A stretch of 64,000 nucleotides of DNA from an uncultured beta proteobacterium (GCA_963775015.1 CAVZHI010000021.1:38143-102142); one strand, 5' to 3'; shown: positions 18,237 to 57,389, numbered from the stretch's first letter. The notes: generated from the letters alone by a model not told the origin. Program-made: numbers and translations.

Positions 18237-18392
18237 GCAGGGCGTTCCCTAAGAAGTATCGGCGCGCCAGCATGGGCGCTGCACGCGCAGGCCGCCATTC
18301 TGCGGGACGCCGGGGCAAACGCAATTTGGCAAACGGGCCGGGCCACACGAGCCCACGCCCTCGCGCGCGGCTCGCGCCGCGCCGAGTCAGGC

Positions 18393-19363
18393 TCAGCGCT
18401 CCTTGACATAAGGCACACCGAGTGCCTTTGGCGCATGCGCCCGACCGATGAAACCGGCGAGCAACACGACCGTCATCAAATACGGCAGTGCTTGGATCAA
18501 TTGCACCGGCACGCTGCCGATCAGGGGCAGAACACTGCCCTGCAAACGGATCGCCGCGGCGTCGAGAAAGCCGAACAGCAGGCACGCCCAGAGAGCGCCG
18601 ACCGGGTGCCACTTGCCGAAGATCATCGCCGCGAGCGCCATGTAGCCGCGCCCGGCCGTCATGTGCGGAATGAAACTCGGGTTCTGCGCCAGCACCAGGT
18701 AGGCGCCGGCGAGCGCGGCGAGTACGCCGTTGCCGGCGAGCGCGGTGTAGCGCAGGCGCACGATCGACACGCCCGCCGCGTCGACCATCGCCGGGTTTTC
18801 GCCGGCGGCGCGCAGGCGCAGGCCGAAGCGCGTGCGGTACATGAACCACCACACCGCGGGCACGAGCGCGAGGCTGAGGTAGACGAAGCCGTTGTGGCCG
18901 AGCAATCCGAGCGCGAGCAGAGTGCCCGACGACGCGGAACGTCGCGCAGCGCGCCGGCGATTCCTGCAAACCAGTTGCTCAAGCGGACCGTGTCGGGCAG
19001 GGGCGGCGTCTGCCCGCCCTGCTGGAACCAGGCGATTCCAAGCACGACGGTGAGGCCGGCTGCCGTCATCGTGATCGCCATGCCCATCACGACCTGGTCG
19101 CCGCGGTGGCTGACGCAGGCGTAGCCGTGCAGCATCGACAAGAGCACGCCGACGATCACCGCGGCGAGCAGCGCCAGCAGCATCGAGCCGCTGAACGCGC
19201 CGACGCTGCCGGTGGCGAACGCGCAGAGCAGCATCTTGCCCTCCAGGCCGAGGTCGATGACGCCGGAGCGCTCGGCGAGCGTTCCGGCAAGCGCGCACAG
19301 GATCAGCGGCACCGAGACGCGCAGGGTCGACGCGAGCAGGGTCGCTAGGCCTAGTTCGTCCAT
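18393..19363 (-). pseudogene. BMP-type (nucleoside/simple-sugar) ABC permease, one frame disruption near 18948
   Basis: N-terminal part MDELGLATLLASTLRVSVPLILCALAGTLAERSGVIDLGLEG in ORF 18659..19423. C-terminal part GTLLALGLLGHNGFVYLSLALVPAVWWFMYRTRFGLRLRAAGENP at the end of ORF 18393..20243. Confidence 0.7.
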
Positions 19364-19386
19364 TTGGCGGTCGCGATGATCGGCCG

Positions 19387-19413
19387 GTGGATCCCGGCGT
19401 GCGCCGGGATGAC
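19387..19413. repeat. REP-like 27-nt palindromic unit (gtggatcccggcgtgcgccgggatgac)
   Basis: Internal hairpin cccggc-N4-gccggg. Lies between the two permease genes. Same family as the other REP units listed. Confidence 0.85.
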
Positions 19414-19444
19414 AGATACGCACGGTGTGCGGGGGTGCATTCGG

Positions 19445-34286: not shown

Positions 34287-34365
34287 GGTAGGGGCTCCTT
34301 GCGGTTGATGTGACTCGGCTGCCTGGGCGGCCTACGCGCCCGGATTTCCAGTTGCGTTGCTCTCG

Positions 34366-34393
34366 TTATCGGTGTCGGTCCGACTTGACTTGA
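34366..34393 (-). promoter_or_regulatory. Candidate sigma-28 (FliA) promoter for flagellin copy 2
   Basis: The minus strand reads TCAAGTCAAGTCGGACCGACACCGATAA. The distal TCAAG gives TCAAG-N15-ACCGATAA (7/8 match to GCCGATAA). It lies about 80 nt upstream of the ATG. Confidence 0.5.
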
Positions 34394-34480
34394 GGGTGAA
34401 TTTGGATTCGCGTGAAAAATTCATCAAACATGTCAAGAGACCCGGTCGACGAATAAGAAGGCATTGAGCCCGGCTTATCG

Positions 34481-35771
34481 GTGCTTCGGGCGGCAACTGA
34501 AGTGATGCCATCACGGCCTATGCAACGTGTCGCCGAATTCGCCCGCACACCCGGCTCCAAGGCGCTGGCAGAAGCGCCGCAGCGCCAATCCATCGCACTC
34601 GTGATGATCGTTCGCGACGAGGCGCGCTGTATAGAAAGGTGCCTGAACAGCGTGCGGCCCTGGGTCGATCAGATGCTCGTTCTGGACACGGGCTCGCGCG
34701 ATGCGACGCCGCAGATTGCGCAGCGCTGCGGGGCGCTGGTCAAGCAGTTCTCCTGGGTCGACGACTTTTCGGCGGCGCGCAACGCCGCGCTCGCGTTCAC
34801 CGACGCGCCATGGCGGCTCGTGCTCGACGCCGACGAGTGGCTCGTCGGCGGCGGTGAAGCGCTTGCCGAGCTGCGTGGTGATCCTCCAGCGTTCCTCGGC
34901 CTGATCCAGGTGGCGAGCCGAATCGACCCAGGGCAAACCGACGCGCCGAGCTGGCTGCCGCGCTTGTTGCCCGCCGGCGTGCGCTACTCCGGTCGCATCC
35001 ACGAGCAGCCCGAATCAGCGCTGCCCCGGCGCCGCCTTCGGCTGCGCGTGGCGCACGACGGTTATCTCGCCGCACAGCGCGCCGCCAAGGCGGGGCGCAA
35101 TCGCAGGCTGCTCGAGATGGCGCTGGCGCAGGATCCGGACGACGCCTATTGGAACTACCAGCTCGGCAAGGACCTGGAGGTGAACTCGGAATTCGCGCAG
35201 GCAGAGCCCTGCTACGCCCGGGCCAACGCCGGCGCCGCAGCGGATGCCGCGTGGCGCCACGACCTCGTCGTGCGCTGGCTGTTCACGCTGAAGAAACTGG
35301 GCGCAGGTCGACGCTGCGCTGCGCATCGCCGGCGTCGAGCAGGCGTCTTGGGCGCGTTCGCCCGACTTCCACTTCACGCTCGGGGACGTGCTCTTGGAGT
35401 GCGCCATTCGGCGTCCGCAACAGGCGCCCGAGCTGTTGCCGAAGATCGAGGCGGCGTGGGAACGCGCGCTGCAGATCGGCGAGCGGCCCGACCTGCCCGA
35501 CACGGTGCGCGGCCGCGGCAGCTTCCTCGCCGCGCACAACCTGGCCGTGTTCCATGCAAGCCTCGGCCGCGCCGAAGAAGCGCGGCGCTGGGAGCAGCGG
35601 GCGCTGCGGCTGCGACAGGCGCCGACCTGGAACTCGAACTGGCGGGCTGACGCAGGCGTATTTCGCGCTTCAGCGCCTCTGCCTCGCCCTAGATTAGCCG
35701 AGCCGCCACTTCGCCGTGCCGACCCTGCTGCCCGTTCGCGGGGATCGCGCCTGCCCCGCCATGCCTCTTGA
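34481..35771 (+). pseudogene. GT2-family glycosyltransferase with C-terminal TPR-like region (GmaR-like architecture), frame disruption near 35303; both ends uncertain
   Basis: GT2 strings IALVMIVRDEARCIERCLNSV, VLDTGSRDAT and LVLDADEW (DxD). After ...WLFTLKKLG the sensible sequence continues in another frame (VDAALRIAGVEQASWARSPDFHFTLGDVLLECAIRRPQQAPELLPKIEAAWERAL...). Confidence 0.65.
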
Positions 35772-37713
35772 CCTGCCCGCCCCCTCAACGCCGACTGCGC
35801 CGCATGCGGCGGCCAAACACGCGCGCGCCTACCGCCATTGGTTCGCAGGCCAGGGTCACGCCGAGCGCGACGACTGGCGCGGCGCAGTGCGAGCGTTCGA
35901 GCAGGCAGACACCTTGTGCCGTGACAGTGCCTACGCGCTCGCCGCGATCCACGCCTTGATCAAGGCCGATCGCTCCGAAGACGCGGCGCGGCGCGCGCGC
36001 GAGTTGCGCGAGCGTGAGCCGCGCAGCGCAATCGCACACATCCTCGAGTCGCACGCGTTGCTGAATCTGGGCCGTCCGGAAGAAGCGGTCGAATGCCTGC
36101 ACGCCTTGCCCGGAGATGTGCCGCGCGACCATCAGCATCTCGTCGCGCTCGCCGTCGCGCTACAGCGTTGCCGGCGCCACCAAGACGCGATCCGCGGTTT
36201 TCTCGGCGCGCTGGCGCTGAAGATCGACGATTCGATTTCGCACTTCCGCCTCGGAATGTCGTTCAAGGACATCGGCATGAAGGCCGAAGCCGCGGAGTGC
36301 GTTCGCACCGCGGTCGTGCTGGGCGTGGGCAGCAGCGACTTGGCAGCGCGCGGTCAGCTCGCGTTTTACGAGCGCGAGGCGTGCCGTTGGCGCGAAGCGC
36401 AGGACGCTTTCGCTGCGCTGCGCGAGCGGGTGATGGCGCTGCCCGACGCGACGCCGATGGAGGCCGCGCCATTCGTCCACGCTGTGCTCTGCGCCGACCC
36501 GCAGGAGCAGCTCAAGGTGGCGCGGCACCACATGCTGCACATCGAGCGCAGCGTGGTCGCGCTGCCGCGCCGCGTGGCGCGGGCGCACGCGGGGCGTTTG
36601 CGTGTCGGTTATTTGTCGGCCGACTTCCACCAGCACGCGACGTCGCAGCTCGTCGCCCAGGCGTTCGAGGCGCACGACCGGGAGGGCCTTGAAGTGACGC
36701 TGTTTTCCGCCGGCCCGGATGACGCGAGCCCGATGCGCGCGCGCATCCGCAGCGCGTGCGAACACTTTGTCGAGTTGCGCGGGATGGGCTTTGCGGCGAT
36801 GGCGCGGCGCATCCGCGAAGCGAATGTCGATATCCTCGTCGATCTGAAAGGCGCAACCCATGACACACTGCTGCCGGTTCTCGCGCACCGCCCGGCGCCG
36901 CTGCAGGTGAATTGGCTCGGCTTCCCGGGAACCTCGGGGGCGCGGTTCATCGACTACATCGTCGGCGACCCGGTCGTGACACCGCTCGCCGATGCCGCCG
37001 ATTTCAGCGAAAAAATCGCTCAGCTGCCGCTGTGCTATCAGCCCAATGATTCATTGCGCGATCGCCCCGCTGCGAGCGGGCGCGCGCAGTGGGGCTTGCC
37101 CGAGGGCAAGGTGCTGCTCTGCGCGTTTCACCAGTCGTACAAGATTTCGGCCGAGGTCTTCGAAGCCTGGTGCGGATTGCTCCACGAATTGCCCGACGCC
37201 TGCCTGTGGCTGCTGGAATGGAACCGCAACGTCGGGCTCGCTCTGCAGCGCGCGGCGCAGGAGCGCGGCATCACGCCGAACCGGCTCGTGTTTTCGCCCG
37301 TCTTGCCCCTTGCGCAACACTTGAAGCGTCTCGCCGAGGCCGATCTCTATATAGACGCATGGCCGTGCAACGCCCACACGACCGCCAGCGAAGCGCTGTG
37401 GCTGGGCGTTCCGGTGGTCAGCCTGCGCGGCAAGACCTTTTCCCAGCGCGTCGCGGCGAGCGCGCTGAACGCCGTGGCGCTGCCGGATCTCGCGTGCGCC
37501 GACCTCAACGCCTACCGCGCGACGATCCTCGCGCTCGCCGGCGACGCGCCGCGCCGCGCAGCGCTGCGCCAGCACCTCGAAGTGCAGGCCGCACGGAGCC
37601 CGCTGTTCCAAGGCGCCGGATTCGCGCGCGAGCTCGAGAAGCTGTATCGGCGCATGTGGGAGCGCGCGGTCGCCGGCCTGGCGCCTGAGCACCTGGAAGC
37701 AGCGCACGGTTAG
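35761..37713 (+). CDS. TPR + GT41-family (OGT/SPINDLY-like) glycosyltransferase, copy 1
   Basis: N-terminal TPR-like helices. The catalytic part LRVGYLSADFHQHATSQL...ILVDLKGATHDT...RPAPLQVNWLGFPGTSGARFIDYIVGDPVVTP...KIAQLPLCYQPND is collinear with the eukaryotic OGT catalytic core as recalled (RVGYVSSDFGNHPTSHL...RPAPIQAMWLGYPGTSGA..DYIITD). Confidence 0.85.
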   Translation: MPLDLPAPSTPTAPHAAAKHARAYRHWFAGQGHAERDDWRGAVRAFEQADTLCRDSAYALAAIHALIKADRSEDAARRARELREREPRSAIAHILESHALLNLGRPEEAVECLHALPGDVPRDHQHLVALAVALQRCRRHQDAIRGFLGALALKIDDSISHFRLGMSFKDIGMKAEAAECVRTAVVLGVGSSDLAARGQLAFYEREACRWREAQDAFAALRERVMALPDATPMEAAPFVHAVLCADPQEQLKVARHHMLHIERSVVALPRRVARAHAGRLRVGYLSADFHQHATSQLVAQAFEAHDREGLEVTLFSAGPDDASPMRARIRSACEHFVELRGMGFAAMARRIREANVDILVDLKGATHDTLLPVLAHRPAPLQVNWLGFPGTSGARFIDYIVGDPVVTPLADAADFSEKIAQLPLCYQPNDSLRDRPAASGRAQWGLPEGKVLLCAFHQSYKISAEVFEAWCGLLHELPDACLWLLEWNRNVGLALQRAAQERGITPNRLVFSPVLPLAQHLKRLAEADLYIDAWPCNAHTTASEALWLGVPVVSLRGKTFSQRVAASALNAVALPDLACADLNAYRATILALAGDAPRRAALRQHLEVQAARSPLFQGAGFARELEKLYRRMWERAVAGLAPEHLEAAHG

Positions 37714-37892: not shown

Positions 37893-38075
37893 CCCGACTG
37901 AACCGTAAGGGTGGAACGTTGGCGGTAGGGCCTCGAGCTTTGCCGTGGGCGCTCGACCGTTCGAGACACACCATGACATTGCCTGTTCAAGCGTCGAGCA
38001 CAACCCGGCCACCGCGCCGGCTTGTCGCGCTCGCCTCGAGCGGCGCCGCCGAACACTGAGAACAAGGAATTTCCC

Positions 38076-41000
38076 ATGGCCACCATCATCCCGAATCTGT
38101 CGACCGCGATCATCGCGGGCCTGTCCACAGCCACCATTGCGGGCCTGTCGACGGAGGACTGGGCGGCGTTCAGTACGGCGCAGATCGCTGCACTGACGAC
38201 GGCGCAGGTCGCGGTCATCGGTACCGCAGCGGTGCCGGCGCTGAGCTCGGATCACATGGCGGCGTTCGAGACCGCCGACCTGCGCGCGATCAATTCTGCG
38301 GCGCTGCGCGCGTTGTCTAGCGACCAGCTCGGCGCGCTGTCGTCGAACCAGATCGGCGCGCTCACGACGGGCCAGGTCGCCGTCCTCACGACGACCCAGG
38401 TCACGCAACTCGCGAGCGATGACCTGAATGCCCTGACAACACAGCAGTTTGCAGCACTCACCAGCGCCCAGGCGATCGCCCTCACCACAGACCAGATCGC
38501 CGCCCTGGAAAGCGCTGACCTCCGGTCGCTGAGCAGCGCAGCGCTGCGTGGCTGGAGCACCGATCAGCTCGGAGCCTTGAGTTCAGACAACATGGCGGCG
38601 CTGACCACAAGCCAGGTCACGGCGCTCACAACAGCACAAATCGCCAGCCTGGCGAGCGACGACCTGAACGCATTTGGAACGACGCAATTCTCTGCGCTGA
38701 CGACAGCCCAAGTCGCGAGCCTGACGTCGAGCCAGATCAGCACCCTGGAGAGCGCGGATCTGCGGGCCTTGGGCACGGCGCAGTACGCCGCGCTGAACAG
38801 CGCCCAGGTGCAGGGCCTCGGAACGGATCAGATGGCGGCTCTGGAGAGCGCTGACCTGCGCTCGATCAACACCGCGGCATTGCGCAGCCTGAGCACCGAC
38901 CAACTCGCCGCCTTGAACAGCGACCAGATGGGCGCGCTGACGACGGGCCAGGTCGCAGCCCTGACCACAAGCCAGATCGCCGGTCTGGGAAGCGACGACC
39001 TGAACGCGCTGACCACAGCACAGTTTGCGTCCCTGACCAGCGCCCAAGCGATTGCGCTCACGACAGACCAGATCCCGAGCCTGGAGAGCTCCGACCTGCG
39101 AGCCCTGAGCACCGCAGCCCTGCGCGGCTGGAGCACGGAGCAGCTCGGCGCGCTGAGCTCAGACAACATGGCCGCGCTGACCACAAGCCAGGTCATCGCA
39201 CTGACCACGGCTCAAATCGCCAGCCTGGTGAGCGACGACCTGAACGCGTTCGGCACGACGCAGTTTGCTGCGCTGACGACAGCGCAAGTCGCGAGCCTGA
39301 CCTCGAGCCAGATCAGCACCCTGGAGAGCGCCGACCTGCGGGCCTTGGGCACGGCGCAATACGCCGCGCTGAGCAGCGCCCAGATGCAGGGCCTGTCGAG
39401 CGACCAGATGCTGGCTCTGGAGAGCGCTGACCTGCGCTCGATCAACACCGCAGCGCTGCGAAGCCTGACCACCGACCAACTCGCCGCCTTGAGCAGCGAC
39501 CAGATGGGCGCACTGACGACGGTGCCAGGTCGCCGCCCTGACGACAAGCCAGATCGCCGGTCTGGGCAGCGACGACCTGAACGCCCTGACGACGCAGCAG
39601 TTTGCATCGCTGACCAGCGCCCAGGCGATCGCGCTCACGACAGACCAGATCCCGAGCCTGGAGAGCGCTGACCTGCGAGCCCTGAGCACCGCAGCGCTGC
39701 GTGGCTGGAGCACGGACCAGCTCGGCGCGCTGAGCTCAGACAACATGGCGGCGCTGACGACGACGCAAGTCGCAGCCCTGACGACCGCTCAAATCGCCAG
39801 CCTGGTGAGCGACGACCTGAACGCATTCGGAACGACGCAATTCTCTGCGCTGACGACAGCCCAAGTCGCAAGCCTGACATCGAGCCAGATCAGCACGCTG
39901 GAGAGCGCCGACCTGCGGGCCTTGGGCACGGCGCAATACGCCGCGCTGAACAGCGCTCAGGTGCAGGGCCTGTCGAGCGACCAGATGGCTGCTCTGGAGA
40001 GCGCTGACCTGCGCTCGATCAACACCGCAGCGCTGCGAAGCCTCACCACCGACCAGCTCGCTGCACTGAGCAGCGACCAGATGGCCGCACTGACGACGGT
40101 GCAAGTCCCCGCCCTCACGACAAGCCAGATCGCCGGCCTGGGCAGCGACGACCTGAACGCCCTGACGACGCAGCAGTTTGCATCGCTCACCAGCGCCCAG
40201 GCGATCGCCCTCACCACAGACCAGATCGCCGCCCTGGAAAGCGCTGACCTGCGAGCCCTCAGCACCGCAGCGCTGCGCGGCTGGAGCACCGACCAGCTCG
40301 GAGCCCTGAGTTCAGACAACATGGCGGCGCTCACGACGACGCAAGTCGCAGCCCTCACGACCGCCCAGATCGCGAGCCTGGTGAGCGACGACCTGAACGC
40401 ATTTGGAACGACGCAATTCTCTGCGCTGACGACAGCCCAAGTCGCGAGCCTGACCTCGAGCCAGATCAGCACGCTGGAGAGCGCCGACCTGCGGGCCTTG
40501 GGCACGGCGCAATACGCCGCGCTGAACAGCGCCCAGGTGCAGGGTCTGGCAGCGACCAGATGGCGGCTCTGGAGGCTGCTGACCTGCGCTCGATCAACAC
40601 CGCAGCGCTGCGAAGCCTGACCACCGACCAGCTCGCCGCCCTGAGCAGCGACCAGATGGCCGCACTGACGACGGTGCAAGTCCCCGCCCTCACGACGAGC
40701 CAGATCGCCGGCCTGGGCAGCGACGACCTGAACGCCCTGACGACGCAGCAGTTTGCATCGCTCACCAGCGCCCAGGCGATCGCCCTCACCACAGACCAGA
40801 TCGCCGCCCTGGAAAGCGCTGACCTCCGGTCGCTGAGCAGCGCAGCGCTGCGTGGCTGGAGCACCGACCAGCTCGGAGCCCTGAGTTCAGACAACATGGC
40901 GGCGCTCACGACGACGCAAGTCGCAGCCCTCACGACCGCCCAGATCGCGAGCCTGGTGAGCGACGACCTGAACGCATTTGGAACGACGCAATTCTCCGCG

Positions 41001-44000
41001 TTGACGACAGCCCAAGTTGCAAGCCTGACCTCGAGCCAGATCAGCACCCTGGAGAGCGCCGACCTGCGGGCCTTGGGCACGGCGCAGTACGCCGCGCTGA
41101 ACAGCGCCCAGGTGCAGGGTCTCGGAACGGATCAGATGGCGGCGCTGGAGAGCGCTGACCTGCGCTCGATCAACACCGCGGCATTGCGCAGCCTGAGCAC
41201 CGACCAACTCGCCGCCTTGAACAGCGACCAGATGGGCGCGCTGACGACGGGCCAGGTCGCAGCCCTGACCACAAGCCAGATCGCCGGTCTGGGAAGCGAC
41301 GACCTGAACGCGCTGACCACAGCACAGTTTGCGTCCCTGACCAGCGCCCAGGCGATTGCGCTCACGACAGACCAGATCCCGAGCCTGGAGAGCTCCGACC
41401 TGCGAGCCCTGAGCACCGCAGCCCTGCGCGGCTGGAGCACGGAGCAGCTCGGCGCGCTGAGCTCAGACAACATGGCCGCGCTGACCACAAGCCAGGTCAT
41501 CGCACTGACCACGGCTCAAATCGCCAGCCTGGTGAGCGACGACCTGAACGCGTTCGGCACGACGCAGTTTGCTGCGCTGACGACAGCGCAAGTCGCGAGC
41601 CTGACGTCGAGCCAGATCAGCACCCTGGAGAGCGCCGACCTGCGGGCCTTGGGCACGGCGCAATACGCCGCGCTGAACAGCGCCCAGATGCAGGGCCTGT
41701 CGAGCGACCAGATGGCGGCTCTGGAGAGCGCTGACCTGCGCTCGATCAACACCGCAGCGCTGCGAAGCCTCACCACCGACCAGCTCGCTGCCCTGAGCAG
41801 CGACCAGATGGCCGCACTGACGACGGTGCAAGTCCCCGCCCTCACGACAAGCCAGATCGCCGGCCTGGGCAGCGACGACCTGAACGCCCTGACGACGCAG
41901 CAGTTTGCATCGCTCACCAGCGCCCAGGCGATCGCGCTCACAACCGACCAGATCCCGGCGCTGGAGAGCGCTGACCTGCGGCCGCTGAGCACCGCAGCGC
42001 TGCGCGGCTGGAGCACCGACCAGCTCGGAGCCTTGAGTTCAGACAACATGGCCGCGCTGACGACGACGCAAGTCGCGGCCCTCACGACCGCACAAATCGC
42101 CAGCCTGGTGAGCGACGACCTGAACGCGTTCGGAACGACGCAATTCTCTGCGCTGACCACGGCCCAGGTCGCGAGCCTGACCTCGAGCCAGATCAGCACC
42201 CTGGAGAGCGCCGACCTGCGGGCCTTGGGCACGGCGCAATACGCCGCGCTGAACAGCGCCCAGATGCAGGGCCTGTCGAGCGACCAGATGGCGGCTCTGG
42301 AGAGCGCTGACCTGCGCTCGATCAACACCGCAGCGCTGCGAAGCCTCACCACCGACCAGCTCGCCGCCCTGAGCAGCGACCAGATGGCCGCACTGACGAC
42401 GGTGCAAGTCCCCGCCCTCACGACGAGCCAGATCGCCGGCCTGGGCAGCGACGACCTGAACGCCCTGACGACGCAGCAGTTTGCATCGCTCACCAGCGCC
42501 CAGGCGATCGCCCTCACCACAGACCAGATCGCCGCCCTGGAAAGCGCTGACCTCCGGTCGCTGAGCAGCGCAGCGCTGCGTGGCTGGAGCACCGACCAGC
42601 TCGGCGCCTTGAGTTCAGACAACATGGCGGCGCTGACCACAAGCCAGGTCACGGCGCTCACGACCGCCCAGATCGCGAGCCTGGTGAGCGACGACCTGAA
42701 CGCATTTGGAACGACGCAATTCTCCGCGTTGACGACAGCCCAAGTTGCAAGCCTCACATCGAGCCAGATCAGCACCCTGGAGAGCGCCGACCTGCGGGCC
42801 TTGGGCACGGCGCAATACGCCGCGCTGAACAGCGCCCAGGTGCAGGGCCTCGGAACGGATCAGATGGCGGCTCTGGAGAGCGCTGACCTGCGCTCGATCA
42901 ACACCGCGGCACTGCGAAGCCTCACCACCGACCAGCTCGCTGCACTGAGCAGCGACCAGGTGGCCGCACTGACGACGGTGCAAGTCCCCGCCCTCACGAC
43001 AAGCCAGATCGCCGGCCTGGGCAGCGACGACCTGAACGCCCTGACGACGCAGCAGTTTGCATCGCTCACCAGCGCCCAGGCGATCGCCCTCACCACAGAC
43101 CAGATCGCCGCCCTGGAAAGCGCTGACCTCCGGTCGCTGAGCAGCGCAGCGCTGCGTGGCTGGAGCACCGACCAGCTCGGCGCCTTGAGTTCAGACAACA
43201 TGGCGGCGCTGACGACGAAGCCAGGTCGCGGCGCTCACGACCGCACAAATCGCCAGCCTGGTGAGCGACGACCTGAACGCGTTCGGAACGACGCAGTTCT
43301 CCGCGTTGACGACAGCCCAAGTTGCAAGCCTCACATCGAGCCAGATCAGCACCCTGGAGAGCGCCGACCTGCGGGCCTTGGGCACGGCCCAATACGCCGC
43401 GCTGAACAGCGCCCAGATGCAGGGCCTGTCGAGCGACCAGATGGCGGCCCTGGAGAGCTGCTGACCTGCGCTCGATCAACACCGCAGCGCTGCGAAGCCT
43501 CACCACCGACCAGCTCGCTGCCCTGAGCAGCGACCAGATGGCCGCACTGACGACGGTGCAAGTCCCCGCCCTCACGACGAGCCAGATCGCCGGCCTGGGC
43601 AGCGACGACCTGAACGCCCTGACGACGCAGCAGTTTGCATCGCTCACCAGCGCCCAGGCGATCGCGCTCACAACCGACCAGATCCCGGCGCTGGAGAGCG
43701 CTGACCTGCGAGCCCTCAGCACCGCAGCGCTGCGCGGCTGGAGCACCGACCAGCTCGGAGCCCTGAGTTCAGACAACATGGCCGCGCTGACAACGACGCA
43801 GGTCGCGGCCCTCACGACCGCCCAAATCGCCAGCCTGGTGAGCGACGACCTGAACGCGTTCGGAACGACGCAATTCTCTGCGCTGACGACGGCCCAGGTC
43901 GCGAGCCTGACCTCGAGCCAGATCAGCACCCTGGAGAGCGTCGACCTGCGGGCCTTGGGCACGGCGCAATACGCCGCGCTGAACAGCGCCCAGGTGCAGG

Positions 44001-45835
44001 GCCTCGGAACGGATCAGATGGCGGCTCTGGAGAGCGCTGACCTGCGCTCGATCAACACCGCAGCGCTGCGAAGCCTCACCACCGACCAGCTCGCTGCACT
44101 GAGCAGCGACCAGATGGCCGCACTGACGACGGTGCAAGTCCCCGCCCTCACGACGAGCCAGATCGCCGGCCTGGGCAGCGACGACCTGAACGCCCTGACG
44201 ACGCAGCAGTTTGCATCGCTCACCAGCGCCCAGGCGATCGCCCTCACAACCGACCAGATCCCGCCCTGGAAAGCGCTGACCTGCGAGCCGCTCAGCACGC
44301 AGCGCTGCGCGGCTGGAGCACCGACCAGCTCGGAGCCTTGAGTTCAGACAACATGGCGCGCGCTGACCACGAGCCAGGTCGCGGCGCTCACGACCGCACA
44401 AATCGCCAGCCTGGCGAGCGACGACCTGAACGCGTTCGGAACGACGCAATTCTCTGCGCTGACGACAGCCCAAGTCGCGAGCCTGACCTCGAGCCAGATC
44501 AGCACGCTGGACAGCGCCGACCTGACCGCACTCACGACAGCTCAATACGCCGCGTTCTCGACCGCCCAGGTGATCGCGTTCACGACGGATCAGATCTCGC
44601 TCATCGAAACCGCCGATCTGCGCGCGCTCACGTCGAGCTCGCTGCGCGCCCTCACCGACGCGCAATTGGCCGAATTGACGACGACGCAGATCACCTCGCT
44701 CGGCGGCCAGGTCGTGAACCTGACGACGTCGCAGCTCGCCGGCCTCGCGTCGGATGACCTGAACGCGATGACCCAGGCGCAGTTCTCGCTCCTCACGAGC
44801 GCGCAGATTTCGCACCTGACGACATCGCAGGTGTCGACGCTGGAGACCGCCGACCTGCGCGCCATCAGCACGGCCAGCCTGCAGGCGATGACGACGGACC
44901 AGATCGTCGCGATCACGACGGACCAGTTCCAGGCCTTGAGCTCGGCGCAGATCGTCGCCTTCACGACGGCACACGCCGCGGCGTTGACGACAGACCAGAT
45001 CGTCGCCTTCACGACGGACCAGATCGTCGCGCTGCAAACGCAGGACATCGCCGCGATGTCGATGACGCAGGTGTCGGCGTTCGAAGGCGCGGACATCTCG
45101 GTCATGACGGCGTCGCAGATCGACGCCATCTTCGCCGCGTCGCCGATCATGCTCGACCTGGACGGCCACGGCGTGAACACGACCGCCGCGGCGCAGGGCG
45201 TGAACTTCGACCTGAACGCGACCGGCAGTGCGCACAAGGTCGGCTGGGCGTCAGCCGGCGACGGCCTGCTCGTGATGGACCGCAACGGCGACGGCAAGAT
45301 TGGCGACGGCAGTGAGCTGTTCGGCACGGCGACACGCCTGGCCGACGGCACGCGCGCCGGCAACGGCTACGAAGCGATGGCGCAGCACGACAGCAACCAC
45401 GACGGCGTGCTCTCCGGCGCCGACGTCGACTTCCAGAAGCTGCAGCTGTGGGTCGACGCGAACGTCGACGGCAAGACGGATGCGGGCGAGCTGCACAGCC
45501 TGGCCGAGTTCGGCGTCGCGTCTCTGGACCTGAAGGGTCTGGCCGGAACGCAGGTGGACAACGGCAATTTGCTGGGTCTGACGTCGACCTACACGACGAC
45601 CGACGGCGCACAACACGCCACGGCCGACGTCTGGTTCGCGAAGGACACGCCGGCGGTGCCACCGAAGCTCGACGAGTTGCTCGCGGCGCCGTCCGCCGAG
45701 TTGCTTGCTGCAGCGCCGGTGGGCCACGCCGCGCCCACACCGGTGGCCGCGAGCCATGTTCCCACGGCGGCGCCGGCAGGAATCGACCGGAACCTGTTGC
45801 CGATCGACGAGAACAAGCACCAACCGCTGATCTGA
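38076..45835 (+). CDS. Giant octapeptide-repeat protein 1 (about 2,585 codons if repaired); interrupted as sequenced by six 1-nt indels (about 39526, 40548, 43215, 43455, 44262, 44358)
   Basis: AAGGA RBS 7 nt before ATG 38076 and no signal peptide. About 290 consecutive 8-aa units L-[ST]-[ST]-x-Q-[IVLMF]-x-[AS] with no register break. Pieces are ORFs 38022..39671, 39745..40620, 40560..43526, 43261..43464, 43538..44341 and 44570..45835, and each junction is repaired by a single-base change relative to sister repeats. The C-terminal Ca-loop module ends ...GIDRNLLPIDENKHQPLI. Confidence 0.8.
38097..45140 (+). repeat. Hierarchical coding tandem repeat: 24-nt unit, 576-nt (24-unit) higher-order repeat present about 11 times, with a further 2,304-nt recurrence
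   Basis: The anchor gacaacatggc recurs at about 38586, 39162, 39738, 40314, 40890, 41466, 42042, 42618, 43194, 43771 and 44347 (576-nt steps, +1 after indels). Variant marker gaacggatcag lies at 38821 and 41125 (2,304 nt apart). Confidence 0.9.
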
Positions 45836-45913: not shown

Positions 45914-48900
45914 ATGAAGATTTCGCTTCCGAAGTGGTTCTCGACCTCGATCATCTTCAACGCGGTCAGGTCATGGATGGGGCAGCTGGGCCAGAACCAC
46001 TCGCAGGGCCCGGGACCGGGCGGTGGGTTCACCGACGCGCAGGCGCGTGCGCTCACGCCGTCGCAAATTGCGGCGTTGAGTCCTGACGAGTTCAACGCGC
46101 TCAGCGTCGCGCAGTTCGCCGCCTTCAGCGTGGCCCAGATCGGGGGGATGACGTCGGCGCAATGGGGCGCGCTGCAGGCGGACTACCTGCAGTCGCTCAG
46201 CACCGCGGCGATGAACAGTCTGTCGATCGCCCAGGTCGGCGCGCTGAACCCGGCGCAGCTGGCGTTTCTCAGCGGCGCCCAACTGAGGGCGCTCTCGCCA
46301 GGCATCGTCGGGCGCCTGGGGCCGAGTTACGTGGAGGCGCTGAGCAGCGACCAACTCGCGGCACTGAGCACGTCGCAGATCGCCGAGTTGACGGGTGCGC
46401 AAATTGCGGTGCTGAGCAGCAGCGACCTCAAGGCGCTCGGCACGACACAGTTTGCCGTCATGTCGACGGCGCAGGTGGTCGCCCTGAGCACGGCGCAGGT
46501 CGCTGCGCTGGACAGCGCCGACCTGAGCGCCTTGAGCAGCAACGCGCTGCGCGCCATGAGCACGGCGCAGCTTGCCGCCCTGGGCAGCGACCAGATCGTG
46601 GCGCTGAGCACGGCACAGGTCAAGGCGTTCAGCACCGGTCAGGTCGCAAGCCTGACCACGGAAGACCTGAACGCGCTGACGAGCGCGCAGTTCGCAGCGC
46701 TCACGTCGGCGCAGGGGCTGGCGCTCACCTCGGCCCAAATTGCCGCGCTCGAGACCGCTGACCTGCGTGCTTTGGGAACCGCCGCGCTGCGCGCCTGGAG
46801 CAGCGCCCAGCTCCTGGCGCTCGGCTCGGACCAGCTGGCGGCGCTCAGCACGGCGCAAGTTGCCGCCTTGACGAGCAGCTCGATCGCACTCCTCAGCCCG
46901 GCTTCGATCGACGCGCTGACGAGCTCGCAGCTTGCGGCGCTGACGACAGCGCAAGTGACGGCGCTGACGACGGCACAGCTGGTGGCGCTGTCCACAGGCG
47001 ACCTGAATGCACTGCGCACCGCGCAGTTCGCGGCCTTCACGACCGGCCAGGTGGCGGCGCTGACGACGGCGCAGGTCTCGGCGCTGATCGACAGACGACC
47101 TGCGTGCGCTCGGCACGGCGCAGTACGCGGCGCTCGGCACGGCGCAGCTGCGATCCCTCACGACCGACCAGATGCCGGCACTGGAGACGAGCGACCTGCG
47201 CGCCCTCGGCTCGGATGCGCTGCGGATCCTGTCGAGTGCGCAATTCGACGCCCTGACCTCGGTGCAGATCGCGGCCCTGGGCTCATGGCAGATCGCCGCG
47301 CTGACGACGAGCCAAGTGGGGGCGCTCGGCACCGACGACATCCGCGCCCTGGGCAGTGCCCAAGTCGCCGCGCTGTCGACAGCGCAAGTCTCGGCGCTGG
47401 CGCCGTTGCAGGTGGCAGCGCTCGAAACTTCCGACCTGCGTGCTTTGAGCACCGCGGCGTTGCAAGGATTGAGCAGCGCACAACTCGACGCACTCGGCGC
47501 GGCGCAGTTCGCCGCTCTGACGACGACGCAGGTGCGGTCGCTCCTGCCGGGCCAATTGGCAGAACTGGCGACGCAAGACCTGAACGCCTTCACGACAGCC
47601 CAGTTTGCCGTGATCGGCACTGCGCAAGTGGTGGCGTTCACGACCGAGCAGGTGGCGGCGCTGGAAACGGCGGATCTGCGCGCGCTGAGCCAGGCGGCGC
47701 TGAACGCGATGACGCCGCAACAGATGAATGCGCTGACCGCCGTGCAGCGCGCTTCGCTGTCGACGGCGCAGGTCGCCGCAATGAGCACGGCGCAAATCGC
47801 GGCGCTGCGAACCGACGACTTGAACGCCCTGGGAACGAACCACTTCGCGGCGTTCAACAGCGCCCAGGTCGGCGCCTTCACGCCGGAGCAGATCGGCGCG
47901 CTCGAAAGCGCCGACCTGCGCGTCCTCGTCGCTTCGGGCCTGGGCACCTGGGGCGCAGCGCAAGTCGGTGCGCTGGGCACCGCCCAAGTGATCACGCTCA
48001 CGTCGACCCAATTCGCCGGCTTCGGCAGCGCTCAAATCGCTGCCCTCAGCACCGAGCAGATTGCCGCGATCGAAACCCTCGACCTGCGCGCCTTGAGCAG
48101 CGCGGCGTTGCAGGGGCTGTCGCTGGCGCAATTCGAGGCGCTGGGAACGACGCAAATCGTCGCCCTGACGACGGCGCAAATCGCGGGGCTCGGCGGGAGT
48201 CAGCTCGCGAGCCTCGGCAGCGCCGAATTGAACCTGCTCAGCAGCGCCCAATTCGCAGCGCTCACGAGCGCCCAGGTGAGCGCGTTCAGCACCGAGCAGA
48301 TTGCGAATCTCGAGACCGTCGACCTGCGCGCGCTCACGACGCTCGCGTTCCAGGCGCTCGGCACCGAGCAGATCGTCGCGTTCACGACGGAGCAATTCGC
48401 CGCGCTGCGCACAGCGCAGATCGCTGCGCTGACGACGGAGCAGGCGGCGGCGCTGACCACCGCCGAGATCGCCGCCTTCACGACGGCACAGATCGTGGGT
48501 CTGGAAACACGCGACATCGCGGTGATGTCGTTGACGCAAGTCTCCGCGTTCGAGGCCGCCGACGTGGCCGTGATGTCGCCGGCGCAGATCGACGCGCTGC
48601 TCGCGGCCACGCCGATCATGCTCGACCTGAATGGCGACGGCGTGCGCACGCTCGCCGCGAGCGAAGGCGTGCGTTTCGACTTGAACGGTACGGGCCATGT
48701 GCAGCAAGTGGGCTGGGTGTCGGCGAGCGACGGCCTGTTGGTGTGGGACCGCGATCACAACGGCCGGATCGACGACGCAGGCGAACTCTTCGGAGGCGCG
48801 ACGCGGCTTCCCGACGCAAGCCGCGCCGGCAACGGCTACGCCGCATTGGCCGCGCTCGACAGCAACCAGGACGCAGCGCTGAGCGGCGCCGATCCGAACT

Positions 48901-49298
48901 TCAAGGACTTGCAGTTGTGGGTCGACGCGAACCACGACGCCGTCACCGACGAGGGCGAGCTGCACAGCCTGGGCGAGTTCGGCGTCACGCAGCTCGGCCT
49001 GCACGCCCAAGCCGGGAGTGCCATGGACAACGGCAACCTGCTCGGCCTGGTGTCGACTTACACGACTGCCGACGGCGCGCAGCATGCGATGGCTGACGTG
49101 TGGTTGGCGAAGCACGTCGCGCCTTCGGCGCAGCCGCCGCTGCACGACTTGCTCGCGACGTCGGCGCCGGCGCTGTTGGCGGAAGCAGCGTTGCATCCAC
49201 CGGCGCCGCCTCCCGCGACCTCTGCCGCCGCCCCGGCAGGTGGCGTCGACCGCAACTTGTTGCCGATCGACGAGAACAAGACGCCGCCGCTCATCTGA
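45914..49298 (+). CDS. Giant octapeptide-repeat protein 2 (about 1,127 codons if repaired); one frame disruption near 47095
   Basis: ORF 45914..49096 carries sensible sequence up to ...TTAQVSAL. It continues in ORF 47172..49298 (MPALETSDLRALGSDALRIL...). About 105 diverged octads are in the same register. The C-terminal module and tail (...GVDRNLLPIDENKTPPLI) are paralogous to gene 1. Confidence 0.8.
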
Positions 49299-50903: not shown

Positions 50904-50924
50904 GGGGGAGGCTTTCGGCTGAGG

Positions 50925-55258: not shown

Positions 55259-55544
55259 GGAGGGCCTTCCTGCGGCGCGTGGTGATGGAGTGATGGGTTG
55301 ATCGATTCAGCGCCTTGGCATTCTGGTGCGCGAGGTGGACCCGCTTGGCACCGATAAGCAGCGTGTTCGGGGCTCAGTTGTGCATGGGTGTGGGGCAGCG
55401 CAGCGCGGCCGCGCTTCGAATTGGCGCCGAATCGCTGCGCTGATGCGCAGACCCAGGCGCGACGGCGCTGCCCACAATGGCGACGCGTCCGGCTGTGACA
55501 CCGGCGCAGCTGCGATTCCTGTGTCAACAGACCCTCGTGAGCCG

Positions 55545-57389
55545 ATGAAAAAACCGACCTATCCGTCAGTCGCAGCGAATCAGACACTGAGCCAACCGAG
55601 CGAGCGCGAGCGCGACCTGCTGCTCGCGCGCTCGGGGAGCATGGCGCTCACCGAGCTGATGCGCGCCGCCGAAGCGCTCACCCAAGCCGGCCAGCCCGCA
55701 GCGGCCGCCGAGCTTTACGAGACCTGGATCACGCACACCGTCTCGCCGATGCAGCATGTGGCGTGTTTCAACTGGGGCACGGTGCTCGGCAGCCTGTCGC
55801 GCCATGTCGAGGCGGAACGCGCGTACCGCAGAGCGCTCGCACTGAGCGACGGCTTCCTGCACGCGCGCCTGAACCTCGGGCATCAGCTCGAACACCTGGG
55901 CCGCCCCGCTGAGGCGCTGGCCGAGTGGCAGGCCGTGAACGACGCGAAAGGCGTCGCGCTCGAGCTGCGCCTGCACGCGCTGAACAACATGGCGCGGCTG
56001 CACGAACAGGAGCGCCGTTACGAAGAAGCCGAAGCGTGCATGCGCGCGAGCCTGACGCTGAAAGCGGCGCAAAGCGATGTGATCCAGCACTACGTGCACC
56101 TGCGGCAGAAGAAGTGCGCCTGGCCGGTCTACGAGCCGGTGGGCGCGGTGACGCAAAACCAGTTGCTCACGGGGACGTCGGCGCTCGCGATGCTCGGGGC
56201 GAGCGACGACCCGGCGCTGCAACTGCTCGCGGCGCAGCGCTTCGTCTTTGAGCGCGTCCCCAAGCCGCCTGCGCTGCCGTTTCACGCGAGCGGCGCGAAG
56301 CGCGAAGGCAAAGTCAAGGTCGGCTACCTGTCGGGCGACCTTCACATGCACGCGGTGGGCTTGCTCAGCGTCGAATTGTTCGAATTGCACGACCGGAGTC
56401 GTTTCGACGTGCACGCGTTTTCCTGGAGCCGCGACGACGGAACGCCGTTGCGCGCGCGCCTGCGCGCTGCGATTGAGCATTACCACCCGGTGGCTCTGCT
56501 GGACGATGCGAGCGTGGCGCGCCTCATCGCTGCGCAAGGCATCGACGTGCTCGTCGACCTGCAAGGCCTGACGAACGGCGCGCGCCCGGCCATCGTCGGC
56601 ATGCGCCCGGCGCCGGTGCAGTTGAGTTACCTCGGCCTGCCGGGGACCTGCGGTTTGCCGGGCGTCGACTGGATTCTTGCGGACCGCTTCGTCATGCCGC
56701 CGGAGCTGCTGCCCTACATGACCGAGCAGCCGATTTACGTGCCGCACTGTTATCAGGTGAGCGACCGCAAGCGCGAAGCCGCAGCACGGCCGACGCGAGC
56801 CGCTTACGGCTTGCCCGAAGACGCGTTCGTGTTCTGCTCGTTCAACAACTCGTTCAAGTTCACGCCCGAGGTCTTCGGCGCCTGGCTGCGCATCCTGAGC
56901 CAGGTTCCGAACAGCGTGCTCTGGCTGCTTGCGGACAACGATTGGGCGCACGCGAACCTGCTGCGCCACGCCGACGCGCAAGGCATCGCACGCGAGCGCC
57001 TGATCCTGGCGCCGCGCGTCGCGCCGCCCGAGTACCTGGCGCGCTTTCAGCTCGCCGACGTGATGCTCGACACGTTCCCGTACAACGCCGGAACGACGGC
57101 GAGCGACGCGCTCTGGATGGGCCTGCCGATCGTTACCTGGTCCGGGCGCAGCTACATCTCGCGCATGGCGGGCAGTCTGCTGCACGCGGTGGGACTGCCG
57201 GACCTCGTGACGCACTCACTCGCCGACTACGAGCGCCTGGCGGTTCAGCTCGGCCAGAACCCGCCGCGCGTCGCGTCGTACAAGCGTTTCCTGGCCGAAC
57301 ATGGGCGGCAGTCCAAGCTGTTCGACGTGCCGGGGCTGGTGCGCGATATCGAGGCTGAGTTCGAGCGCTTGGCTTGGGCGTACCGCTGA
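55545..57389 (+). CDS. TPR + GT41-family (OGT/SPINDLY-like) glycosyltransferase, copy 2
   Basis: Start at MKKPTYPSVA (55545). VKVGYLSGDLHMHAVGLL...VLVDLQGLTNGAR...RPAPVQLSYLGLPGTCGLPGVDWILADRFVMPP...YVPHCYQVSD is collinear with copy 1. Confidence 0.85.
   Translation: MKKPTYPSVAANQTLSQPSERERDLLLARSGSMALTELMRAAEALTQAGQPAAAAELYETWITHTVSPMQHVACFNWGTVLGSLSRHVEAERAYRRALALSDGFLHARLNLGHQLEHLGRPAEALAEWQAVNDAKGVALELRLHALNNMARLHEQERRYEEAEACMRASLTLKAAQSDVIQHYVHLRQKKCAWPVYEPVGAVTQNQLLTGTSALAMLGASDDPALQLLAAQRFVFERVPKPPALPFHASGAKREGKVKVGYLSGDLHMHAVGLLSVELFELHDRSRFDVHAFSWSRDDGTPLRARLRAAIEHYHPVALLDDASVARLIAAQGIDVLVDLQGLTNGARPAIVGMRPAPVQLSYLGLPGTCGLPGVDWILADRFVMPPELLPYMTEQPIYVPHCYQVSDRKREAAARPTRAAYGLPEDAFVFCSFNNSFKFTPEVFGAWLRILSQVPNSVLWLLADNDWAHANLLRHADAQGIARERLILAPRVAPPEYLARFQLADVMLDTFPYNAGTTASDALWMGLPIVTWSGRSYISRMAGSLLHAVGLPDLVTHSLADYERLAVQLGQNPPRVASYKRFLAEHGRQSKLFDVPGLVRDIEAEFERLAWAYR

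Follow-up and report, generated by a model that had tools for sequence, protein, structure and literature searches.

Signs of concerted evolution and six probable consensus errors in a giant ALTTAQ-repeat gene of an uncultured beta proteobacterium

The window analysed here is a stretch of 64,000 nucleotides from the genome of an uncultured beta proteobacterium. It carries a gene of approximately 7.8 kb (gene 1, 38076..45835, +) to which the nested repeats belong and which encodes a giant protein of ALTTAQ repeats with an SPM-like domain at its C-terminal end, as delimited by reconstruction of the open reading frame, by matches to PF20080 and by alignment with the closest available genome, L001. 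As assembled the gene consists of seven reading-frame segments, and its fragments are called as separate proteins in the deposited assembly, one of which (P0001) is the ORF at 44570-45835. Once six single-base indels are taken out it becomes one uninterrupted ORF of 2,585 amino acids (38076-45835) with no internal stops, which agrees with an earlier sequence-only reading of the window that had proposed one large repeat-protein gene.

A gene for a TPR and GT41 glycosyltransferase lies directly upstream (35716..37713, +), and a second gene of the same kind, its paralogue, is found at 55326..57389 (+). Two flagellin genes adjoin the locus. Type I secretion genes (58646-63998) are encoded 13 kb downstream of gene 1 on the minus strand, and comprise a TolC-like OEP (58646-60145), a HlyD-family MFP of the HlyD_3 type (60405-61751) and an ABC exporter with ABC_membrane and ABC_tran domains that runs off the window (61917-63998). 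Among 22 related loci, homologous T1SS genes occur within 10 kb in 10 and a GT41-family enzyme stands beside the large repeat gene in nine. Substrates of type I secretion lack an N-terminal signal peptide and carry a C-terminal secretion signal that is not cleaved. The N-terminus of the gene 1 protein (MATIIPNLSTAII) has no obvious signal peptide, and a C-terminal end in ...PLI is kept in many homologues. We infer that the T1SS exports the gene 1 product.

The array is marked by an anchor, GACAACATGGC, which occurs in 11 exact copies in the window (38586...44347) against a chance expectation of 0.01. The spacings between successive anchors are 576, 577, 576, 575, 576, 576, 576, 576, 578 and 575 nt, much as first described (about 11 copies, one every 576 nt or so). 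They define ten homogenised units of 576 nt, each encoding 192 amino acids or 24 octads, that we call W1-W10 (38586..44346, +; starts at 38586, 39162, 39739, 40315, 40890, 41466, 42042, 42618, 43194 and 43772) and that are 85-96% identical to one another. The units at either end (starts 38010 and 44347) have diverged to 57-71% identity to the rest: the leading unit U0 (38010..38585, +), which holds the gene start at 38076, is 57-68% identical to the other units, and the trailing unit W11 (44347..44922, +) has approximately 70% identity to W1-W10 and 83% to its orthologue at the same position in L001.

Above the single unit there is a longer period of 2,304 nt. Two blocks of four units, W1-W4 and W5-W8 (38586..43193, +), are 95.05% identical over the first 2,304 nt (pS 0.149, pN 0.013), compared with 89-91% at other lags, and the segment 38700-39500 is 98% identical to the sequence 2,304 nt further on. 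Five markers of one unit flavour (GQVAAL, TTAQFAS, IPSLESSDL, STEQ and SQVIAL) are present in two copies each, exactly 768 residues (2,304 nt) apart, while those of the second flavour have five to eight copies each, so that the proposal of two flavours, the first recurring at 2,304 nt, is upheld. The nested repeats and the super-period described earlier are likewise real; the hierarchy has more than the three levels then recognised, since TRF and autocorrelation reveal further periods of 96, 240 and 336 nt. The copies are not near-identical as had been supposed: in addition to the divergence among W1-W10, the units differ from one another at 11-44% of synonymous sites, and the longest exact repeats in the array are 257 and 254 nt.

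The hierarchy exists in the DNA because the protein is built that way. Approximately 290 octads run in an unbroken single register with the consensus [TS][AD][QD][LVIM][AR][AS]L[TS], in which position 1 is Thr or Ser in 94% of octads, position 3 Gln or Asp in 81% and position 7 Leu in 80%. The 24-nt octad would be assembled into sub-blocks of 32, 80 and 112 amino acids (96, 240 and 336 nt), these into the 192-residue unit of 576 nt, and the units into the 2,304-nt level, which would reflect partial duplication of a four-unit block. PF20080 (ALTTAQ_rpt) matches the first 482 residues in 16 stretches (E=7e-150) and the last 498 residues in nine (E=2.7e-59), and by these matches the gene 1 product is an ALTTAQ repeat protein. 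AF2 predicts one helix of 5-6 residues per octad, with pLDDT >90 there and a reported pLDDT of 87 for the model. The octads would thus each fold as a short N-capped helix and stack into an alpha-helical "screw", suggesting that the protein forms a rod.

The SPM-like domain (45143..45646, +) is homologous to the self-processing module of FrpC (PF26745) and to its structure 6SJW (phmmer 1.8e-35, profile 2.2e-61); its AF2 model has pLDDT 96-98, and Foldseek returns a probability of 1.0, a TMt of 0.83 and 45% identity. Calcium-dependent autocleavage and Asp-Lys cross-linking are the activities that mark such a module. In FrpC the scissile bond is D414-P415, the Asp forming an anhydride (PMC7078468). 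When gene 1 is compared with the "clip-and-link" RTX proteins FrpC, FrpA and ApxIVA (6SJW/6SJX; PMC7078468), homology starts at the first residue of the module, Pro415. The Asp-Pro scissile bond is absent from the N-terminal edge of the module in gene 1, where the domain starts with Ser-Pro. Among 120 homologues the residue before the invariant Pro is Thr in 62, Ser in 57 and Asp in one. Gene 1 keeps the DLDG and EF-hand-like motifs of FrpC and an equivalent of D579, but has Thr at the position of D478. Its module also differs in lying near the C-terminal end, with approximately 60 residues after it and no RTX repeats following. Pfam finds no RTX nonapeptide repeats (HemolysinCabind) in the first 482 or last 498 residues and only a weak EF-hand_5, and NCBIfam has no name for the C-terminal domain. 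As in FrpC-type systems a T1SS is encoded nearby, and the domain is predicted to bind calcium. The systematic replacement of the catalytic Asp by Ser or Thr may mean that the module is a non-cleaving folding cap triggered by calcium, or that it processes itself by another chemistry, for example an N-to-O acyl shift.

Proteins that pair PF20080 with PF26745 appear under the names "ALTTAQ repeat-containing protein", "heme utilization protein" or "hypothetical". They share the domain pair and the octad with no essential difference, and gene 1 is a member of this known ALTTAQ-SPM family. The SPM domain is also carried by its homologues, and among the 119 non-self homologues listed all have the pair but one (P0112, SPM without ALTTAQ). 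A literature search for "ALTTAQ" returned no mention of the repeat. A parallel is found in a designed protein, HeliScrew (PDB 9ZEM; bioRxiv 10.64898/2025.12.04.691947), which has the same octad pattern (LTPEQIAA compared with LTTAQIAA in gene 1); HeliScrew4 aligns with gene 1 over 111 residues at E=7e-14, or 3.6e-26 with a profile. The gene 1 protein is natural and approximately 20 times longer, and has Thr or Ser and Ala where the design has Pro at helix N1. The likeness is one of sequence, and 9ZEM is absent from the Foldseek results for the gene 1 model. The locus points to an uncharacterised family, whose repeat matches a recently designed fold and in whose SPM the residue on which the known chemistry depends is missing.

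Other large exported proteins resemble gene 1 in part. In the HMW1 adhesin system the GT41 enzyme HMW1C is likewise encoded beside a large repeat protein, here one predicted to be secreted. The GT41 proteins of the window have a weak NCBIfam match to NGT, the N-glucosyltransferase, but unlike HMW1C they carry TPR repeats, as O-GlcNAc transferases do. Ser and Thr make up 27% of the octads, which contain no NXS/T sequons in contrast to HMW1, and the flagellins next door offer another possible substrate context. Giant T1SS adhesins of the LapA, SiiE and MpIBP/BapA type would also be comparable: they have multi-kilobase arrays of coding repeats that are near-identical, lack an N-terminal signal peptide, bind calcium in their C-terminal region and have a T1SS nearby; their copy number varies between taxa and their genes frequently break assemblies. 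Their repeats are beta (Ig-like) domains of approximately 100 residues, as opposed to the 8-residue helical repeats of gene 1, and the N-terminal retention module and RTX repeats of LapA-type adhesins were not found in gene 1. A broader picture that we offer tentatively is that ALTTAQ-SPM proteins are widespread, unstudied T1SS-exported natural "helical-screw" fibres of hundreds of 8-residue helices, with TPR-GT41 enzymes possibly decorating the Ser or Thr of each octad and with the catalytic Asp of the SPM replaced.

The orthologue of gene 1 in L001 is intact, with 2,587 amino acids, 86% amino acid identity, a gap of two residues and the same 11 anchors. This shared architecture speaks against the suspicion raised earlier over the copy number, the two closest genomes having the same number of units. 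Single-ORF orthologues are also found in L003 and in 12 further complete sequences (1,055-3,690 aa), and ALTTAQ-SPM orthologues in the Burkholderiales range from 1,055 to >3,980 aa. The expected size variation of a surface protein thus holds from genus to genus (Rhizobacter OV335 has 3,385 aa, and elsewhere the length is 2,100 to >3,980 aa) but not between the closest genomes. The 192-residue higher-order unit is specific to the lineage of the window, L001 and L003, and other lineages have units of 136, 217/218 or 57 residues.

Units of 576 nt are more alike within a genome (85-96% in the window, 82-95% in L001) than between the two, where identity is 76-81% at any position, and the block period is four units in the window compared with three in L001. 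This pattern indicates concerted evolution, each lineage having had block events of its own, and not one recent burst of amplification. Of the recent amplification first proposed, homogenisation within the genome and block events remain, while the synonymous divergence between copies speaks against recency. Gene conversion or unequal exchange, with purifying selection acting, would keep the ten units evolving together, making the locus a clean case of concerted evolution with conserved unit number.

The six single-base indels reported previously are all present, at 39525 (+1), 40551 (-1), 43218 (+1), 43459 (+1), 44263 (-1) and 44358 (+1) on the plus strand. Gene 1 as given therefore has six frameshifts, the first leading to a stop at 39671. 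At 39525 in W2 the sequence had been read as a sister "ggtgcaggtc" plus one base, but no such sister exists: the other units have GGTGCAAGTC (seven copies) or GGGCCAGGTC (three), and GGTGCCAGGTC is therefore a hybrid of the two flavours GGTG/CAAGTC and GGG/CCAGGTC. The claim that every break is a sister repeat with one base added or lost is not supported either, as the breaks sit in hybrids of two flavours. The deletion at 40551 in W4 (CTGGC^AGCGAC) has a left flank of W5 type and a right flank of W3 type. In W9 the insertion at 43218 (GACGACGAAGCCAGG) is a hybrid of ACGACG/ACGCAAG and ACCACA/AGCCAGG, and that at 43459 (GAGAGCTGCTGAC) can be read as one inserted T or as a hybrid with the W4-type GAGGCTGCTGAC. 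At 44263 in W10 (GATCCC^GCCCTGG) the left side is that of W6/W9 and the right that of W3/4/7/8, the junction base being lost, and at 44358 in W11 ATGGCGCGCGCTG carries both the G and the C allele of that W1-W10 column.

The offsets of the six indels within the unit all differ (363, 236, 24, 264, 491 and 11). With the indel base removed, the 28-nt contexts of the five in-array indels remain separated from all other units by 2, 2, 3, 1 and 2 nt, against an array background in which 6.9% of positions differ by at least 2 nt and 78% are identical to another unit. The sequence around every indel is thus a local mixture of two unit flavours (p ~1e-5, edit-distance and hybrid-haplotype test). This test replaced an earlier statistic of adjacency to a variable column, which was weak: its chance expectation at each site was 0.32-0.60, according to the radius and threshold chosen. 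None of the six contexts shows a homopolymer or a simple-repeat tract like those behind phase variation, and a homopolymer explanation was rejected on these contexts.

Frameshifts are also found in ordinary genes of the window. A control region of transporter genes (12316..19420, -) contains a DppC-like permease broken at ~12.72-12.80 kb and a DppB-like permease broken at ~13.75 kb, each with its Pfam domain split between frames, a fragmented SBP_bac_5 solute-binding protein gene (14.7-16.3 kb) and a BPD_transp_2 permease broken at ~18.90 kb. The last break is confirmed by >40 reference orthologues, taken from distant ABC-ATPase loci found in a scan of genome contigs. A TonB receptor has its plug and barrel in different frames, and a GT2 glycosyltransferase (34481..35771, +) has a +1 frameshift at ~35303 where the L001 orthologue is single-frame. 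Gene 2, a paralogous ALTTAQ/SPM gene (45914..49298, +), has one +1 frameshift at ~47090, its L001 orthologue being intact at 1,130 aa. Two other candidates were rejected, namely ~10.3-10.7 kb, which holds separate PNP and cytidine deaminase genes, and 29-30.7 kb, where the frame changes between separate small flagellar genes; a break at ~50.23 kb may be a frameshift or two adjacent genes. At least eight breaks are thus documented in the ~56 kb outside gene 1 (at least 0.14/kb), and the density within gene 1, 0.77/kb, is 4-5 times that documented elsewhere.

We consider that the six indels are most probably sequencing or assembly errors, arising in consensus or polishing, and that the gene is intact in the organism, which would make the finding largely ordinary. 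An error-prone assembly would leave +/-1-nt consensus or polishing errors across the window; inside the array, mixing of reads from different units (or strains) would make the errors worse, and where the substitutions that separate two flavours are clustered the consensus would come out hybrid and a base long or short. This reading draws on the frameshifts in ordinary single-copy genes of the window, on the position of the indels in hybrid sequence, on the single stop-free ORF obtained with six corrections, and on the intact orthologues in L001, L003 and the 12 other complete sequences. It draws also on selection, since everything downstream of the first frameshift has a dN/dS of ~0.10 against the intact L001 orthologue, and on the absence of any nonsense mutation, deletion or other lesion in the 7.8 kb beyond the six frameshifts. 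Finally, a second MAG (L104) is fragmented in the same manner, with its giant ALTTAQ gene split into five ORFs in alternating frames and both tandem ALTTAQ genes fragmented. Three points count against it: the intact orthologues belong to other species (~80% nucleotide identity), none being from the strain itself; decay of the entire genome, if it were under way, could make the background frameshifts real as well; and the indels lie outside homopolymers, where simple long-read errors usually concentrate. The excess density in gene 1 leaves room for a real repeat-associated mutational process.

One alternative, that gene 1 (and gene 2) is a genuine pseudogene inactivated very recently by six real frameshifts, possibly within a genome-wide decay, is improbable. 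It would account for frameshifts that are present in the deposited assembly, with fragments called as separate proteins, and for the denser indels of an array whose long diverged tandem repeats are recombination-prone. It sits poorly with a gene that has six frameshifts yet no other lesion and is under selection downstream of the first, and with orthologues that are intact in every complete case; it would also need simultaneous +/-1 indels, with no other decay, in 4-5 ABC import genes and the TonB receptor. Quite improbable too are real indels produced by gene conversion or template switching between flavours, resolved out of register to leave +/-1 nt at tract ends. Each of the six indels does coincide with a flavour-switch point or adjoin one, in a hybrid haplotype that is locally unique, and the array is visibly mosaic and evolves in concert. 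Homologous conversion between alleles of equal length keeps length, however, the frame is preserved at dozens of other flavour switches of the array, frameshifts of genes without repeats are left unexplained, and six independent, unselected disabling events conflict with the dN/dS of 0.10. Breaks that act as phase-variation switches, or as sites of programmed ribosomal frameshifting, to set the output or length of a surface protein are very improbable: surface repeat proteins are often phase-variable and gene 1 adjoins flagellin and glycosylation genes, but the six sites share no slippery motif, have no homopolymer or short tandem tract and fall at six different unit offsets, and the orthologues are plain ORFs.

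The evidence thus favours artefact over pseudogene, a choice that the earlier reading had not made, and is in line with its view that the indels are unreliable. The assembly hazard it foresaw is also apparent, as the gene reaches a contig end in six of the 22 related loci; the 119 non-self homologues listed for the C-terminal query are all fragments (255-698 aa), approximately 99 of them on contigs <10 kb. If the indels are errors, annotation should join the seven ORF fragments of gene 1, and likewise the at least two of gene 2, into one gene each instead of treating them as pseudogenes or separate proteins, and the whole window should be treated as carrying approximately one indel error per 4-7 kb. 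An indel inside a hybrid of two repeat flavours is a usable marker, from sequence alone, of consensus artefacts where tandem repeats have diverged. A CCWGG motif lies within 6 nt of four of the six indels, compared with ~0.17 expected per site; this hint of methylation-linked basecalling errors is post hoc and confounded with variable Gln codons.

The repeat hierarchy of gene 1 is genuine and has a good explanation. There are exactly 11 copies of the 11-mer GACAACATGGC from 38586 to 44347, all of them on the plus strand, compared with 0.01 expected from shuffles; a sequence-only reading had noticed this anchor recurring every 576 nt, about 11 times. The spacings are 576, 577, 576, 575, 576, 576, 576, 576, 578 and 575 nt, and those that differ from 576 already show where the length has changed. 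The anchors divide the array into ten units, W1-W10 (38586-44346), with pairwise identities of 85-96%, flanked by diverged leading (38010) and trailing (44347) units that are 57-71% identical to them. Each 192-aa unit is exactly 24 octads. TRF and autocorrelation detected periods of 24, 96, 240, 336 and 576 nt and a weaker one of 2,304 nt, and therefore the three levels first described (24, 576 and 2,304 nt) are present within a hierarchy of more than three. Two unit flavours had also been described, the first recurring 2,304 nt apart, and its markers GQVAAL, TTAQFAS, IPSLESSDL, STEQ and SQVIAL are indeed found twice each, 768 aa apart; markers of the alternative flavour have 5-8 copies. The first 2,304 nt match the sequence four units further on at 95.05% identity, compared with 89-91% at lags of 1-3 and 5-6 units; for 38700-39500 alone, the match 2,304 nt further on reaches 98%. 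The 576-nt copies are not near-identical as had been supposed, since the longest exact repeats in the array are 257 and 254 nt and synonymous-site differences between units reach 11-44%.

Comparison with the closest related locus indicates that the array is a product of concerted evolution and not of a single recent burst. This locus, L001, is from an uncultured betaproteobacterial MAG (~80% nucleotide identity) and is syntenic with the window over 33.9-56.1 kb. It encodes gene 1 as an intact 2,587-aa ORF, in which all 11 anchors occupy the positions that they have in the window, and gene 2, the downstream paralogue, as an intact 1,130-aa ORF. L001 units are 82-95% identical among themselves, compared with 85-96% for W1-W10, and window and L001 units are 76-81% identical whatever their position; the trailing, non-homogenised unit is 83% identical to its positional orthologue. 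The window has a four-unit super-period (W1/5 96%, W2/6 95%, W3/7 95%, W4/8 94%) and L001 a three-unit one (V3/6 95%, V4/7 94%, V5/8 92%), indicating that each lineage homogenised and block-duplicated its units independently, and despite this the unit number is the same in both. Most differences between units are synonymous (mean pN 0.031, mean pS 0.253), with a pS of 0.149 between the two 2,304-nt blocks and 0.40 between the unique parts of the window and L001. Homogenisation took place after the split from L001, yet not very recently. Of the recent amplification proposed earlier, the block duplication and within-genome homogenisation stand, but the pS values of blocks and units do not support very recent events. 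In having higher-order coding repeats that evolve in concert, the DNA of gene 1 resembles that of giant type I secretion system (T1SS) repeat proteins. Ten homogenised and two diverged units, and lengths of 2,585 and 2,587 aa, are kept in the window (38586-44346) and L001 (4586-10345) although the units are scrambled, and this conservation may reflect a constraint on rod length.

The six single-base indels that had been reported to break the frame are supported by unit alignment, which places extra bases at 39525, 43218, 43459 and 44358 and missing bases at 40551 and 44263. With the four extra bases deleted and the two missing bases padded, gene 1 becomes one 7,758-nt ORF (38076-45835, plus strand) of 2,585 aa without an internal stop, and the corrected protein is 86% identical to its L001 orthologue with a single 2-aa gap. 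The breaks are not, however, sister repeats plus or minus one base. The sequence cited for the first of them, ggtgcaggtc, is absent; seven sister copies at 39525 read GGTGCAAGTC and three read GGGCCAGGTC, and in GGTGCCAGGTC, the broken copy, the left half matches one flavour and the right half the other. Hybrid contexts of this kind also occur at 40551, 43218 and 44263; at 43459 and 44358 they are plausible. After removal of the indel, no other unit comes closer than 2, 2, 3, 1 and 2 nt to the 28-nt contexts of the five in-array sites. Across the array as a whole, 78% of positions have an identical counterpart in another unit and only 6.9% show two or more differences; the joint probability of hybrid contexts at the five sites is of the order of 1e-5.

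On this sequence evidence the six indels are probably assembly artefacts, the frame breaks most likely being errors of the kind that affects this assembly throughout. A consensus built from mixed reads of two unit flavours, or of two strains, would create hybrid contexts at clustered substitutions, and the hybrid contexts point to an artefact. Frameshifts in ordinary single-copy genes (12316-19420, 24747-27745, 34481-35771 and ~47090) point the same way, with at least eight breaks in ~56 kb. The BPD_transp_1 domains of a DppB-like and a DppC-like permease are each split between two frames, the adjacent SBP_bac_5 gene is fragmented but has an unbroken paralogue, the reading frame of a BPD_transp_2 permease shifts at ~18.9 kb (>40 reference orthologues and Pfam), a TonB-dependent receptor has its plug and barrel in different frames, and relative to L001 a +1 is present in both GT2 (~35.30 kb) and gene 2 (~47.09 kb). 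Outside the array the window has roughly one indel per 4-7 kb. At ~50203-50254 on the minus strand, frames 49448-50254 and 50203-51369 are found where L001 has one 603-aa ORF, which may be a further frameshift or a pair of neighbouring genes; the junction has a possible ATG. An artefact is also indicated by a second MAG (Rhodoferax sp., GCA_016708725.1, 2476-18412), in which the giant ALTTAQ gene is in five ORFs (frames 1, 0, 1, 0, 2), each fragment with an out-of-frame tail, and the adjacent tandem paralogue is in three ORFs. Frameshift fragmentation of this family thus recurs among assemblies.

A genuine pseudogene is unlikely, because the six frameshifts are the only lesions in gene 1, dN/dS relative to the intact orthologue is ~0.10 over the whole stretch after the first break, and all complete orthologues are intact, each of which points to an artefact; the frameshifted single-copy genes also count against decay of gene 1. 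Real indels associated with recombination are a little more doubtful still: the density in gene 1 (0.77/kb) is 4-5 times that documented elsewhere (Poisson p ~0.001 to 0.01 by background count), as a real repeat-linked process would give, but equal-length homologous gene conversion should leave length unchanged. Regulated frameshifting is very improbable. No homopolymer or simple-repeat tract occurs at any of the six sites, which argues against phase variation and also sets the indels apart from the simplest long-read errors. Four of the six (39525, 43218, 43459 and 44263) are within 6 nt of a CCWGG motif, with a chance of ~0.17 per site. If the indels are assembly artefacts, this proximity could reflect methylation-linked basecalling error, an explanation that is post hoc and confounded with variable CAG/CAA codons.

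That the gene is an assembly hazard, as first suggested, is evident from related loci, where the ALTTAQ gene runs into the contig end in 6 of 22, and from the database, where the C-terminal 421 aa have 119 non-self homologues, all of them fragments (255-698 aa) and ~99 on contigs below 10 kb. The copy number had been considered unreliable too, but it is corroborated by the identical architecture of L001.

Nested repeats and frame breaks as first stated are an ordinary finding; more interesting are what may be a naturally occurring version of a designed helical-screw fold, an SPM subfamily that lacks the catalytic Asp and a conserved linkage to GT41 and T1SS genes. The gene 1 protein matches PF20080, the ALTTAQ repeat (E=7e-150), and residues 34-2354 form ~290 octads in a single unbroken register, with consensus [TS][AD][QD][LVIM][AR][AS]L[TS] and 27% Ser+Thr. 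An AlphaFold2 model built on 120 homologues (mean pLDDT 87) predicts one 5-6-residue helix per octad in the repeat region (pLDDT >90). The repeats align with HeliScrew4 (PDB 9ZEM; E=7e-14, or 3.6e-26 with a profile), a designed 8-residue helical screw called a novel fold in a 2025 preprint (bioRxiv 10.64898/2025.12.04.691947), and this fold may be shared by the ALTTAQ proteins, which would then form a large natural family of its kind. The natural octad LTTAQIAA (38076-45130) and the designed LTPEQIAA align significantly.

The C-terminal domain is homologous to the FrpC self-processing module (SPM), with a phmmer alignment that starts at the first SPM residue (E=1.8e-35; 2.2e-61 by profile search) and a predicted structure (pLDDT 96-98) matched by Foldseek to 6SJW (probability 1.0, TM 0.83, 45% identity). 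Homologues carry the Pfam pair PF20080 and PF26745 (SPM), and by its domain matches gene 1 is a member of this ALTTAQ + SPM family, for which a literature search found no experimental literature. FrpC/ApxIVA clip-and-link proteins share the SPM fold and T1SS context, but have a scissile Asp-Pro, in which the Asp of FrpC forms a reactive anhydride (PMC7078468). The domain in gene 1 opens instead with Ser-Pro (45140-45145), and the residue before the invariant Pro in 120 homologues (alignment A1) is Thr in 62, Ser in 57 and Asp in 1, so the known Asp-anhydride chemistry cannot operate where Ser or Thr (119/120) replaces Asp. This Ser/Thr position is conserved despite the loss of Asp; gene 1 also has Thr at the equivalent of FrpC D478 and His at D423. 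RTX nonapeptide repeats, another difference from FrpC/ApxIVA, were not found in the first 482 aa or the last 498 aa of the gene 1 protein, and we rejected a clip-and-link assignment on account of the replaced Asp-Pro and the lack of such repeats there.

A complete set of T1SS genes, for a TolC-like protein, an HlyD-family protein and an ABC exporter whose gene runs off the window (58646-63998, minus strand), lies 13 kb downstream of gene 1, and in 10 of 22 related loci homologous genes are found no more than 10 kb from the ALTTAQ gene. A TPR-GT41 glycosyltransferase gene flanks gene 1 (35716-37713) and a second is at 55326-57389. Such a gene is within 10 kb in 9 of the 22 loci (L001, L002, L004, L005, L007, L008, L010, L013 and L018), often directly adjacent, also where flagellin is not nearby, and the 27% Ser/Thr repeat protein may be a GT41 substrate. 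Upstream of gene 1 and gene 2 (45914-49298) are ycgR, fliT, fliD, two flagellin genes and GT2 (28913-35650), and downstream are a methyltransferase and a 1,111-aa AsnB-like amidotransferase (49445-55258), so that the surroundings of the ALTTAQ genes are flagellar and glycosylation-related. Between the second GT41 gene and the T1SS genes is a gene for an AbiEii-type toxin (type IV toxin-antitoxin; 57133-58482, minus strand).

Among more distant relatives, the Rhizobacter sp. OV335 orthologue is intact at 3,385 aa with about four extra units, another 12 complete homologues consist of one ORF each (1,055-3,690 aa), and two more exceed 3,970 aa and extend beyond the examined flank. The higher-order period varies with lineage (L003-L021), being 192 aa here and in Rhizobacter-like loci, 136 aa in Aquabacterium-like loci, 217-218 aa in Pseudoduganella/Rugamonas and 57 aa in Propionivibrio; the first two are exact octad multiples and the last two are not. 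A 350-aa ‘mini’ ALTTAQ + SPM protein is encoded on a 172-kb contig (L103, 10001-11053), and therefore the family also has short members; its gene adjoins a Bmp/BPD_transp_2/ABC operon resembling that at 18-24 kb of the window.
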